Shown here in pieces: positions 16,247 to 47,651 of a stretch of 64,000 nt of DNA. The position numbers and the translations under genes were made by a program. Within the stretch, counting starts at the first letter, position 1. The number at the start of each line of letters is the position of its first letter. Below the pieces are notes generated by a model. That model was not told the DNA's origin. It searched no databases and saw only the letters and a program-made list of their open reading frames with translations. Where the stretch lies: the NCBI RefSeq assembly GCF_055900595.2, contig NZ_CM148325.1. One strand, 5' to 3'.

Positions 16247-17845
16247 TTAACGTAACGGCATAACGGGCGTGATATGTCCATTATGCCGGGCGGGCGGCGG
16301 TTGGCTGCCCGCCAGCCATTTGGGAAAATCACGTAGCGGCATCGGCTGTGCGTACAAATACCCTTGCAAAATATGCACGCCATGACGGCGCAAATACTTC
16401 GCCTGTTCTTGTGTTTCCACACCCTCCGCCACCAGTTCAATATTCAGTCTTTGCCCCAGTGCGATGATGATATCGGTCACCGTCGAGTTAACCGCGTCAG
16501 AACCTATAGCTGCGGTAAATGACTTATCAATTTTCAGCACGTCAGGACGTAATGTTTCAAGCCAGGAAAATGAACTGTTGCCGGTGCCGAAGTCATCAAT
16601 CGCCAGTTTGACGTTTTTACGATGCAGCTCGCGGGCAATCCGATAATCAACATCCAGTAAGGCATCGCGTTCGGTGATTTCGAGGATCAGTTGCTGAATC
16701 GGGTGAGCGCTAAACCAGTACTGATTGAGATCTTTTATCAGCACACCACGGCGAAAATGGCTGGGTGCGACGTTAATGCCAACATGAAACTGACTACTCA
16801 TTGGGAAAACATGCCGCTGACGGATGGTTTCTGCCATCACATAGCGGGTCAGTGGCACAATTAAATGATGTTCTTCCGCGATAGGAATAAACACATCCGG
16901 TGAAATCCAGCCCTGACGTGGATTGTTCCAGCGCAGCAAAATCTCTACACCAATACATTGCTGGCTGCGCGCATTAAGCAAAGGCTGGCAGAACAATTCG
17001 AACTCATGTTGCGCCAGGCCCAGATTGATTTCACGGGAAAAACTCATCCGGTAAGCGGTCGCCAGCCAGGCGATATAGCCCACAAGTAAACTTAGCAGCA
17101 CCGCCAGCGGTAATTGTGTTGGAAGATAGTGCCATGCCAGCGCCGTAGCCCCCGGACCATTAACGTTAATGGTAAAAGGAAAGCGTTGCGAAGAAACATG
17201 ATAGTTTTCATTGTCTTCAGGTTGCGGAAGGGAATCTACCAGCCCATTACCATAGAGCAAATGCCGATCGTCCACCGTCAGGCTGGCGCTACTGATTTGC
17301 GGCAGTTGTGGCTCAAGCAGCATTGCCGCCAGTAAGTCGATGTTGATCATCTCCATGACCCCAGCATTGCTACTGCCCGCTGCAGGCGTCCATTGAATCA
17401 AAACCGGACTGCCTTTAATCAGGGCATGGTCGGTCGTCAGTCGTAAAAGTGGTTGCGGTGCAGGAAGTTCAGCCAGAATGTCCACGACGGGCACATTGCG
17501 ATAACCAAAAATGCTGGAGCAATAAAGTGTGCCGTCTTGCACCAGGCCAATGGATCGCACAGTTTGGAGTTTTGCCGCCTGTTTACGTAATGGCAAATGG
17601 GCGACAGAGCAGGGCAGACCAATTAGCGGAAGTAAGACTTCACTACCTGCCTGTAGGGGAAGCAGTACTTTATCTAATTCCTCTACAGCGTGATTGGCGA
17701 ATTGTACTACCCGTTGTTGATTTAAGTTACGCTGTGAAATAAATCGCACGCTCAGGGTCGAAGCGAGCGTAACGAGTGCGCAAATCGTACAAACAATCAT
17801 TCGATTACGGCGATAGGTTTTAATGATCCGTTGTGCTTTTTGCAT
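16247..17845 (-). CDS. pdeD: c-di-GMP phosphodiesterase PdeD (YoaD), CSS sensor plus EAL domain
   Basis: Track ORF 16247..17875 trimmed to ATG at 17845 (MQKAQRIIKTYRRNRMIV...); EAL signature ELVAEGVE present. Confidence 0.85.
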   Translation of the reverse strand: MQKAQRIIKTYRRNRMIVCTICALVTLASTLSVRFISQRNLNQQRVVQFANHAVEELDKVLLPLQAGSEVLLPLIGLPCSVAHLPLRKQAAKLQTVRSIGLVQDGTLYCSSIFGYRNVPVVDILAELPAPQPLLRLTTDHALIKGSPVLIQWTPAAGSSNAGVMEMINIDLLAAMLLEPQLPQISSASLTVDDRHLLYGNGLVDSLPQPEDNENYHVSSQRFPFTINVNGPGATALAWHYLPTQLPLAVLLSLLVGYIAWLATAYRMSFSREINLGLAQHEFELFCQPLLNARSQQCIGVEILLRWNNPRQGWISPDVFIPIAEEHHLIVPLTRYVMAETIRQRHVFPMSSQFHVGINVAPSHFRRGVLIKDLNQYWFSAHPIQQLILEITERDALLDVDYRIARELHRKNVKLAIDDFGTGNSSFSWLETLRPDVLKIDKSFTAAIGSDAVNSTVTDIIIALGQRLNIELVAEGVETQEQAKYLRRHGVHILQGYLYAQPMPLRDFPKWLAGSQPPPARHNGHITPVMPLR

Positions 17846-28227: not shown

Positions 28228-28255
28228 AGACGCCGGTTAATCCGGCGTTTTTTTT
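28228..28255 (+). terminator. intrinsic terminator downstream of fadD
   Basis: stem cgccgg / ccggcg with TTAAT loop followed by an 8-T run. Confidence 0.8.
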
Positions 28256-28279: not shown

Positions 28280-29407
28280 TTGAATTACCAAATGATTACC
28301 ACGGACGATGCGCTGGCTTCTTTGTGTGAAGCCGTCCGTGCCTTTCCGGCGATAGCCCTGGATACTGAATTTGTTCGTACGCGCACCTATTACCCGCAGC
28401 TGGGTCTAATTCAACTTTTTGATGGTGAGCATCTGGCGCTAATTGATCCTCTCGGGATCTCCGACTGGTCACCGCTGAAAGCGATACTGCGCGATCAGTC
28501 CATCACAAAATTTCTCCATGCGGGCAGTGAAGATCTGGAAGTGTTCCTCAATGTCTTTGGCGAATTACCACAACCCTTGATTGACACGCAAATCCTTGCT
28601 GCCTTCTGCGGACGCCCGATGTCATGGGGTTTCGCTTCCATGGTGGAAGAGTATTCCGGCGTTACGCTGGACAAGAGTGAATCGCGCACCGACTGGCTGG
28701 CCAGACCGCTGACCGAACGTCAGTGTGAATACGCAGCGGCGGATGTCTGGTATCTGTTACCGATCACCGCAAAGCTTATGGTAGAAACGGAGGCCTCCGG
28801 CTGGCTACCTGCGGCGCTGGATGAATGCCGCCTGATGCAAATGCGTCGTCAGGAAGTCGTTGCACCGGAAGATGCCTGGCGTGATATCACCAATGCCTGG
28901 CAGTTACGCACACGCCAACTGGCCTGTCTGCAACTGTTAGCCGACTGGCGACTGCGCAAGGCGCGGGAGCGCGATCTGGCGGTGAACTTTGTCGTGCGTG
29001 AAGAGCATTTGTGGTCGGTAGCGCGTTATATGCCGGGAAGTTTAGGCGAACTGGACAGCCTGGGCTTATCCGGTAGCGAAATCCGCTTTCACGGTAAAAC
29101 GCTGCTGGCGCTGGTGGAAAAAGCGCAGACATTGCCGGAAGAGGCCTTACCGCAGCCGATGCTTAACCTGATGGACATGCCGGGTTATCGTAAAGCGTTT
29201 AAAGCGATTAAGTCGCTGATTACTGACGTGAGCGAAACACACAAGATCAGCGCCGAATTGCTGGCATCGCGTCGGCAAATCAACCAGCTGCTGAACTGGC
29301 ACTGGAAACTGAAACCGCAGAACAATTTGCCGGAGCTGATTTCCGGCTGGCGTGGTGAGCTGATGGCGGAAGCATTACACAATTTATTGCAGGAATATCC
29401 ACAGTAA
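28280..29407 (+). CDS. rnd: ribonuclease D
   Basis: 375-aa ORF starting at TTG (rnd is known to use a UUG start); (M)NYQMITTDDALASLCEAVRAFPAIALDTEFVRTRTYYPQLGLIQL... Confidence 0.92.
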   Translation: MNYQMITTDDALASLCEAVRAFPAIALDTEFVRTRTYYPQLGLIQLFDGEHLALIDPLGISDWSPLKAILRDQSITKFLHAGSEDLEVFLNVFGELPQPLIDTQILAAFCGRPMSWGFASMVEEYSGVTLDKSESRTDWLARPLTERQCEYAAADVWYLLPITAKLMVETEASGWLPAALDECRLMQMRRQEVVAPEDAWRDITNAWQLRTRQLACLQLLADWRLRKARERDLAVNFVVREEHLWSVARYMPGSLGELDSLGLSGSEIRFHGKTLLALVEKAQTLPEEALPQPMLNLMDMPGYRKAFKAIKSLITDVSETHKISAELLASRRQINQLLNWHWKLKPQNNLPELISGWRGELMAEALHNLLQEYPQ

Positions 29408-29413
29408 AATCTT

Positions 29414-29455
29414 CCGAAGCCGGACTGGGCGCGCTCAGCGCCACATCCGGCTTCG
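29414..29455. other. nested inverted repeat between convergent rnd and yeaX
   Basis: 11-bp perfect outer stem ccgaagccgga / tccggcttcgg enclosing a second GC-rich palindrome (ggcgcgctcagcgcc); no adjacent U-run. Confidence 0.5.
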
Positions 29456-29460
29456 GCAAA

Positions 29461-30426
29461 CTACAAATCCAACACCAGGCGTTTACCCTTCGCGCGTGAA
29501 CAACAGATCAACATACTTTGCTGGCTGGCACGCTCTTCATCGCTAAAATACTGATCCCGATGGTCAGCTTCACCTTCCAGTATTGCCGTTTCGCAGGTTC
29601 CGCATACCCCTTCACGACATAAACATTCCACTTTAGCTGCTTTACTATTTTCAATAACCTGCAAAATAGTCATCTCTTCCGGCACCACAAACTCTTTTCC
29701 GGAACGGGCAAGCACCAGCGTAAATGCATCGCCGGTTTTGTCTTCGATAGCAAATTGCTCAAAGTGCAGCGTATCGGTGGCGATGTCCAGACGCGCAGCT
29801 TCACTTCTTACCGCCTCATTTAGCGCCTCGGGGCCACAGGTATAAACATGTGTGCCAGGTTCGATATCCGCCAATAATCGCGCTAATTCCAGTCGTGTTC
29901 CGGTTGATGAATGATGCAAATGGACTTTCTCGGCCTGCGGATGCTGGACTAGCTCATCACGAAATGCGCAACTTTCTGGATTTCGCGAGCAGTAATGTAA
30001 CTGCCAGTCGACGTCGCTGTATTGCAACTCTGCCATGTGCGACAGGAAAGGGGTGATACCAATACCGCCCGCGATAAACAGATGCTTTCTGGCCGAGGGA
30101 ATTAGCGCAAACAGATTATTAGGCGTCGAAATGGTCAACCGATCGCCTGCTTTCACCTGCTGATGCAAAAAGCGCGAACCACCGCGCGAGTTTTCTTCCA
30201 GCCGAACGGCAATCTGATAACGAGACGTATCGAGTGGCGAACTCAGCAGTGAGTACGCATTGCTGTACTGGTTATCACCATCGCTCATCTGCACAATGAT
30301 GTGACTTCCTCCAGTAAACGCAGGTAATGGTTTGCCATCGGTTGCCACCAGCGTGAAGCGTTTCACCTGTTCGGTAAGGGGGTCAACCTGACTCACCTGT
30401 ACTTCAAACATTTGGTAGTTTGACAT
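29461..30426 (-). CDS. yeaX: carnitine monooxygenase reductase subunit (YeaX/CntB)
   Basis: 321-aa ORF; C-terminal plant-type [2Fe-2S] Cys cluster (CREGVCGTCE) and flavin reductase-like N-terminus. Confidence 0.9.
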   Translation of the reverse strand: MSNYQMFEVQVSQVDPLTEQVKRFTLVATDGKPLPAFTGGSHIIVQMSDGDNQYSNAYSLLSSPLDTSRYQIAVRLEENSRGGSRFLHQQVKAGDRLTISTPNNLFALIPSARKHLFIAGGIGITPFLSHMAELQYSDVDWQLHYCSRNPESCAFRDELVQHPQAEKVHLHHSSTGTRLELARLLADIEPGTHVYTCGPEALNEAVRSEAARLDIATDTLHFEQFAIEDKTGDAFTLVLARSGKEFVVPEEMTILQVIENSKAAKVECLCREGVCGTCETAILEGEADHRDQYFSDEERASQQSMLICCSRAKGKRLVLDL

Positions 30427-30481
30427 TGCTGTACTCCATCAAAAATCAGCCCAGCGGCGGAAAATACCGCCGCCGATGTCA

Positions 30482-47551: not shown

Positions 47552-47651
47552 CTACATTTGCCAACTGTTTGCTACGCCTGTGTTGCCGCTTCTCTGGCCC
47601 ACGGTTCGCTGTCGTTGTAGGCCCGGTAGCATGCGTACCGGGCCATGGTTG

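Follow-up and report, generated by a model that had tools for sequence, protein, structure and literature searches.

The gap between rnd and yeaX

The window, i.e. the whole stretch of 64,000 nt that was analysed, is E. coli chromosome; a 701-nt query placed around the site described here matches 5,425 of 5,426 complete E. coli genomes. According to the RefSeq annotation of near-identical E. coli genomes, the site is flanked by rnd on the plus strand, which encodes RNase D, and by yeaX on the minus strand, which encodes the carnitine monooxygenase reductase; this annotation bears out the gene names used in a preliminary description of the DNA. Sequence and annotation place the TAA stop codon of rnd at 29405-29407 (+) and the TAG stop codon of yeaX at 29463-29461 (−), leaving a gap of 53 bp (29408-29460) between the convergent genes, as that description had it. 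Window positions convert to K-12 coordinates by subtraction (K-12 = 1916271 − window). At the other end of rnd, a very strong Term-seq 3' end, that of the fadD terminator / sroD, is recorded by Adams et al. 2021 (PMC7815308) at K-12 1888018-1888020 (−). It falls at window positions ~28251-28253 (+), with only 27-29 nt between it and the rnd ORF downstream, and expression of rnd must therefore need read-through or a promoter in this short gap.

A single hairpin of 43 nt occupies most of the 53 bp, separated from the rnd stop by a 6-nt spacer, AATCTT (29408-29413, +), and from the yeaX stop by 4 nt (29457-29460). Its outer stem is formed by CCGAAGCCGGA (29414-29424) and TCCGGCTTCGG (29446-29456), which pair perfectly over 11 bp; of these, the outermost 3 bp are confined to E. 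coli and the clade nearest to it. Enclosed by this stem, as had been noted from the letters, is a second palindrome, an inner stem of 5 bp made of GGCGC (29428-29432) and GCGCC (29438-29442). The two stems are separated by a 3x3 internal loop, CTG (29425-29427) opposite ACA (29443-29445), and the inner one is capped by the apical loop GCTCA (29433-29437), which varies among Escherichia. The CTG/ACA loop is that of the plus-strand fold; in the minus-strand fold the mid-stem zone is a 2x2 GU/CA loop.

The predicted stability of the hairpin is exceptional on both strands. The RNA minimum free energy is −34.4 kcal/mol on the plus strand (z −7.7) and −37.2 kcal/mol on the minus strand (z −6.5), and in either case none of 200 shuffled sequences folds as well. 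Among 25,582 windows of 50 nt covering both strands of the 64 kb, the hairpin ranks first at −35.5 kcal/mol, against a background with a mean of −9.5 and a standard deviation of 4.2. The pattern GCCGGA-N15-30-TCCGGC, which describes part of the outer stem, occurs once in the window, with 0.09 occurrences expected.

Two other folds in the window may be mentioned in their own right. The second most stable 50-nt fold lies at 16266-16315 (+) and reaches −33.6 kcal/mol (GCCGGGCGGGCGGCGG...CTGCCCGCC). In the gap between yeaW and yeaX, at 30427-30481 (−), a hairpin of −25.9 kcal/mol (GGCGGCGG-TATTTT-CCGCCGC) is followed, on the operon strand, by a T-rich stretch and may serve as an attenuator or stabiliser within the operon.

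Termination signals and stop codons near the hairpin

An intrinsic terminator consists of a GC-rich hairpin and a subsequent U-rich tract of 7-8 nt. At the end of rnd, the hairpin is present and the tract is missing: the plus-strand sequence following the stem is CAAACUACAAAU, with no U-tract. On the minus strand the stem is followed by AAGAUUUUAC, in which a short UUUU appears in the yeaX-sense RNA 4 nt past the stem (29409-29406, −). This run is the complement of the rnd stop codon plus AA, and is thus fixed by the stop-codon context of rnd. The preliminary statement that U-runs are lacking is accordingly right for the plus strand and needs this amendment for the minus strand. A scan with a terminator consensus does not call the site.

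Downstream of the hairpin, the rnd-sense strand is C-rich and G-poor and constitutes a putative rut region (29457-29700, +; C/G 2.29). The C/G ratio is 1.73 over 29457-29600, which corresponds to the 98.7th percentile, and peaks at 4.0 near 29600. Supplementary file 2 of Adams et al. 2021 (PMC7815308) lists a Rho termination region at K-12 1886672 (−), with a Rho score of 5.03 and p 9.1e-8. It converts to window position 29599 (+), ~143 nt beyond the hairpin and antisense to yeaX, a position that is approximate because the Rho score is computed on 800-nt windows. The curated Term-seq lists of the same study, covering three conditions, contain no 3' end at K-12 18868xx on either strand; rnd is weakly expressed.

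Such a configuration is familiar. Dar & Sorek 2018 (PMC6061677) found stable stem-loops without U-tracts at the ends of Rho-terminated E. coli mRNAs, with rut sites located just downstream; these ends are made by PNPase and RNase II, which trim the transcript, and the stem-loops protect the mRNA. Where they touch on REPs, they cite a proposal by Peters et al. that places these palindromes in a protective role. The end of rnd shares the features by which this class (Peters et al. 2012; Dar & Sorek 2018) is recognised: a stable hairpin lacking a U-tract just after the ORF, a tract with C in excess over G directly downstream, and published bicyclomycin-dependent read-through within ~150 nt. It differs in that the steady-state 3' end at the hairpin foot, which defines the class, has no entry for rnd in the lists of Adams et al. 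2021, and in that the rnd hairpin, which is shared with a convergent gene, greatly exceeds typical terminator hairpins in strength. The missing U-tract, the C-rich tract, the published Rho region and the existence of a known U-less class together point to the hairpin as an exonuclease barrier for an rnd mRNA whose transcription would be terminated by Rho.

The proximity of the hairpin to both stop codons raises the possibility of an effect on translation. Expression of rnd is kept low through a UUG start. With the stem beginning 6 nt past the rnd stop and 4 nt past the yeaX stop, the hairpin might stall terminating ribosomes and lower the amounts of both proteins. This action, compatible with a role at the mRNA 3' end, is conceivable though somewhat doubtful. 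The spacing on the rnd side is kept in those Escherichia lineages in which the rnd stop is intact, i.e. excluding Escherichia sp. MOD1-EC7003. As summarised in PMC12306157, Liang, Rudd & Deutscher 2015 describe REPs located <16 nt from a stop codon as lowering translation, and both spacings, as read from the sequence, lie inside that limit; the rnd-yeaX element, unlike the elements described there, is not a canonical REP. In MOD1-EC7003, however, the rnd ORF enters the stem and the gene is not obviously lost, and the constraint on the stem described below is equally explained by protection of the 3' end.

Less probable is that the hairpin itself dislodges RNA polymerase arriving from the rnd and the yeaX side, the Rho-independent bidirectional attenuator of the preliminary description. 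A very stable hairpin placed exactly between convergent genes would suit this role, as would the AAGAUUUUAC that follows it on the yeaX-sense strand, and in bidirectional intrinsic terminators one hairpin in a short convergent gap likewise serves both transcripts. The rnd-yeaX hairpin, however, is devoid of the A-tract and U-tract flanks of such terminators: past the stem, U residues are absent from the rnd strand and limited on the other to the U4 at a distance of 4 nt. Moreover, the consensus scan does not call it, the lists of Adams et al. 2021 place no Term-seq 3' end here, and ~140 nt downstream on the rnd strand read-through is controlled by Rho. The bicyclomycin dependence of this read-through implies that polymerases pass the hairpin. 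The attenuator is therefore an unlikely description of the site, and Rho-dependent termination of rnd beyond a protective hairpin is preferred.

A true bidirectional terminator does occupy the same position in other genera, as seen in an RNase D-anchored scan of one genome per species (80 loci). The convergent partner of rnd in Klebsiella, Kosakonia and Kluyvera is minE, and the gap between the two is filled by a canonical bidirectional terminator, AAAAAAGGCAGAA...TTCTGCCTTTTTT. In Enterobacter, rnd is followed by GTAG/CTAC-tagged REPs. Several Citrobacter species that possess yeaX have another REP-like palindrome, which is oriented the opposite way and scores ~11-12 bits with the REP covariance model introduced below; these palindromes probably represent an independent occupancy of the gap by REP-like sequence. 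Outside Escherichia and some Citrobacter, rnd faces minE instead of yeaX, and the filler of the gap, terminator or REPs, varies by genus. The position after rnd is thus always taken by some strong hairpin, the type of which is interchangeable.

REP ancestry and constraint

The REPs of E. coli (Y, Z1 and Z2; group 2 REPtron, substrates of TnpA-REP, also termed RayT) are extragenic, GC-rich imperfect palindromes of ~35 nt, within a general range of 20-50 nt. They share a lower stem GCCGGA/TCCGGC, an unpaired or irregular mid-stem zone and an upper stem GGCG(C)/(G)CGCC. The rnd-yeaX hairpin has this architecture throughout: its core, GCCGGA-CTG-GGCGC-GCTCA-GCGCC-ACA-TCCGGC (29419-29451, +), is laid out in REP (GTAG-first) orientation, and the REP strand is the rnd-sense strand. 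The sequence of the mid-stem zone departs from the consensus AA/GC, the internal loop being 3x3 instead of 2x2, with ACA at 29443-29445 where the REP consensus and other Escherichia have GCA. Searched for with ≤6 edits allowed, the 1984 REP consensus has its sole match in the 64-kb window at the rnd-yeaX element; the same pattern finds known REPs in the K-12 malE region, which was scanned alongside.

Profile methods do not recognise the E. coli copy. A REP covariance model (R1) was built from 20 seed sequences among 26 REPs gathered from 250 kb of K-12, and true K-12 REPs, a set that includes six non-seed sequences, reach 36-60 bits with it. The window copy attains 7.5 bits (E 9.3) and ranks 13th among the matches in the window, which is the level of noise. 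Searches with nhmmer and short REP HMMs are likewise not significant (E 1.8); they have low power and suffer heavy bias correction, and the covariance model was used instead.

What the copy lacks are features needed for mobility. The tetranucleotide GTAG that precedes the palindrome in canonical REPs is replaced by a decayed head, CGAA (29415-29418, +), and the stem has grown by 3 bp into this former head. Of the lower-stem positions contacted by TnpA-REP, T11 is lost (C29425, with C in all Escherichia orthologues) and G32 is kept (G29449). Corneloup et al. 2021 (PMC8266576) found GTAG to be crucial for TnpA-REP, and both binding and cleavage to be seriously affected by mutation of T11 (T11A). 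From the loss of both, cleavage or recombination of the window copy by TnpA-REP (RayT) is predicted not to occur.

High-copy dispersal is absent as well: the 53-mer has a median of one place per genome across 5,423 E. coli genomes, and blastn finds it in no phage and, among plasmids, only in mislabelled chromosomes. The parent REP family, in contrast, is multi-copy, and the rnd-yeaX copy is presumably immobile. Nor is the element a BIME, which comprises two inverse REPs and a linker motif, because the gap holds one palindrome only. The earlier reading of the element as a REP-type extragenic palindrome thus stands with regard to descent and architecture, since the orthologues of sister lineages score significantly, and falls short for the window copy itself: set against the REP/BIME consensus, this copy agrees within six edits and disagrees in covariance score, head, T11, copy number and BIME pairing.

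Several observations accompany these searches. In ~1,800 E. coli genomes, for example those of O157:H7 and ST131 strains and not that of K-12, the 53-nt query also matches, more weakly, at a second place. With 14.2 bits (E 0.27), the window's best match to the covariance model is a GTAG-headed palindrome, GTAGGCCCGGTA...ACCGGGC, at 47617-47643 (+), which may be a REP of another subtype. The K-12 annotation was tried as a source of evidence and discarded: the copy of NC_000913.3 used here carries zero repeat_region features, and the missing annotation is uninformative because even the classical malE-malF REPs are unlisted there. A single Rfam match, to a snoRNA (E 6), was taken as chance. A literature search found no link of rnd or yeaX to REPs.

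The ancestry of the element becomes apparent in its orthologues. An alignable element is present at the same position in all six Escherichia lineages. In strain E69, whose rnd has 93% nucleotide identity, it reads GTAAGCCGGACAAGGCGC-AACCA-GCGCCGCATCCGGC, has the head GTAA, and scores 33.3 bits with the REP covariance model (E 1.3e-5). The orthologue of Escherichia sp. E1V33 scores 19.5 bits (E 0.018), and that of E. albertii, which has kept GTAA and in which the upper stem is decayed, 12.1 bits. The agreement between E69 and REPs is not confined to paired positions but extends to unpaired ones, namely the GTA in the head as well as both bulges, AA and GC. The 3' half GCGCCGCATCCGGC, common to several Escherichia lineages, equals the REP consensus exactly, and E. 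coli is one G->A change away from it. In E1V33 and SCPM-O-B-8794 the head is CTGA. The REP-like character of these positional orthologues is what identifies the rnd-yeaX element as, by descent, a decayed single-copy REP that was inserted before the Escherichia species diverged; as the window copy is not significantly REP-like, it is orthology that carries the case for its ancestry. At two 5' bulge positions parsimony gives an ambiguous result, since CTG is present in both E. albertii and E. coli; the CAA state of E69 could be derived instead of ancestral. Escherichia sp. MOD1-EC7003 has TAC in place of the rnd stop TAA, and the ORF continues for 7 codons into the 5' arm of the hairpin before a TGA ends it; a rearrangement is also seen in the sequence that lies downstream of the hairpin.

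GC-rich palindromes look alike, and a hairpin that arose de novo at this gene pair could resemble a REP by convergence. The failure of the window copy to match REP models significantly and its single-copy state would fit such convergence. Convergence is nevertheless an improbable source of the resemblance, as it does not account for the orthologues, which match REPs at positions irrelevant to structure and over an exact 3' half with an E-value of 1e-5, or for the selectivity of the 1984 consensus, which at ≤6 edits picks solely this element in 64 kb and, in the K-12 malE region, known REPs. Descent from a REP remains the preferred origin.

The core stem of the hairpin is under constraint. In the Escherichia set, one of its 16 columns is variable, compared with 57% of the four-fold sites of rnd, and the lone change converts an A-U pair to G.U, by which pairing is kept; the binomial P for this difference, printed as 0.0000, is ~3e-5 by hand. 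Elsewhere in the element variation is frequent: 4 of 5 columns are variable in the loop, 4 of 6 in the internal loop, and all 6 in the outer 3 bp. The comparison of rates with the four-fold sites of rnd was used in place of a covariation test; among 10 Escherichia sequences there are no compensatory changes on both sides, and the covariation signal is not above that of shuffles. At the foot of the stem, head and tail have changed in the direction of pairing in two clades. In E. coli and the nearest clade, GTAA has become CGAA, which pairs with the pre-existing TTCGG, and in E1V33 and SCPM-O-B-8794 the change of GTAA to CTGA is accompanied by TTCGG to TTCAG, with pairing in a shifted register.

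Within E. coli, the element is kept in 5,423 of 5,426 genomes, in three main allelic forms. The window sequence itself is found in 2,019 genomes. A one-SNP class comprises ~2,049 genomes; both of the two members sampled carry C29454T in the 3' arm of the outer stem, which gives G.U in the rnd-sense RNA and an A.C mismatch in the yeaX-sense RNA. The third class (~1,350 genomes, 80-90% identity) includes genomes with and without yeaX; in the genomes inspected, a 7-bp deletion of CGCCACA (equivalent to 29439-29445) results in a perfect 14-bp stem, CCGAAGCCGGACTG/CAGTCCGGCTTCGG. Every allele folds at −29 to −37 kcal/mol. The hairpin also follows rnd in ~1,052 E. coli genomes that lack the genes from yeaX through dmlA, and its retention is hence linked to rnd no less than to yeaX. 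In these genomes (~1,052 of 5,425, without yeaX-yeaW-yeaV-dmlA), the match to the window ends 24 bp into the 3' end of yeaX (window ~29484), and rnd faces dmlA and dmlR fragments. A junction much like this one is present in a different lineage, Escherichia SCPM-O-B-8794, which suggests an old polymorphism or transfer.

These data bear on whether the element is a functionless fossil, neutral debris of a mobile element that persists only through the shortness of the gap. The head and T11, needed for recognition by the transposase, are gone, the covariance score has decayed to noise, and compensatory double changes number zero, all of which a fossil would show. Mere debris is quite unlikely even so: the core stem is far more conserved than nearby four-fold sites while the loops evolve freely, pairs result from every derived head and tail substitution in two lineages, the stem is perfect again in the indel allele, and the element is retained in genomes that have lost yeaX. 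Whether as an active substrate of RAYT/TnpA-REP or as a gyrase or IHF site of the BIME type, action on the level of DNA is highly improbable, for although such roles are known for REPs and BIMEs and rayT is present in K-12, the crucial GTAG is absent, T11 is mutated, neither a BIME pair nor a linker exists, and blastn with the 53-mer yields no meaningful second copy in E. coli genomes, plasmids or phages.

A probable path from mobile repeat to mRNA 3' end

Taken as a whole, the rnd-yeaX hairpin is best read as a decayed REP that now serves as a shared 3'-end hairpin, acting as an exonuclease barrier for the Rho-terminated rnd mRNA and also ending the yeaX mRNA; a probability of roughly 0.6 is assigned to this reading. 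Its descent and its presumed action can be put as follows. A single REP of the enterobacterial Y/Z type became established between rnd and yeaX before the Escherichia species split, and the copy of E. coli has since dropped the GTAG head needed by the REP transposase and gained three base pairs. RNA polymerase coming from rnd would pass the hairpin, which lacks a U-tract, and enter the untranslated, C-rich antisense of yeaX, where Rho would terminate the transcript. 3'-5' exonucleases may then trim the rnd mRNA back to the foot of the hairpin, which would protect it from further degradation. Hairpin structure, descent from a REP, constraint on the stem, the C-rich stretch and, from published data, Rho dependence close by are shown; passage of the polymerase, trimming and protection are inferred. 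For the yeaX mRNA, the same hairpin followed by AAGAUUUUAC may give weak intrinsic termination.

Head loss, stem extension and strong purifying selection are evidence for domestication of the REP. In its strongest form, domestication would comprise two separate selective replacements of the transposase-recognition head by stem-lengthening bases (GTAA to CGAA in E. coli; GTAA to CTGA plus a 3' change in another clade), converting a mobile repeat into a gene-specific structure that, through its distance of 6 nt and 4 nt from the two stop codons, jointly sets mRNA 3'-end stability and the efficiency of translation termination for both genes. This full scenario is speculative and rather unlikely to hold in all its parts; of the two genes that it would affect, one encodes RNase D, itself a 3' exoribonuclease.

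The preferred reading, a decayed REP acting at the 3' ends of both mRNAs, explains why rnd has no recognisable terminator, and it predicts the location of the 3' ends of the rnd and yeaX mRNAs. A REP-derived 3' hairpin without a U-tract at a Rho-dependent gene end is of a known type and does not represent a new kind of biology. The rnd-yeaX element would rather provide a small and clean case of a selfish repeat turned into a fixed, constrained 3'-end structure, in which the features of mobility, GTAG and T11, are gone and the stem is kept and lengthened. Fossils of this kind are missed by profile searches of single genomes; it is only the orthologues of sister species that reveal their ancestry.
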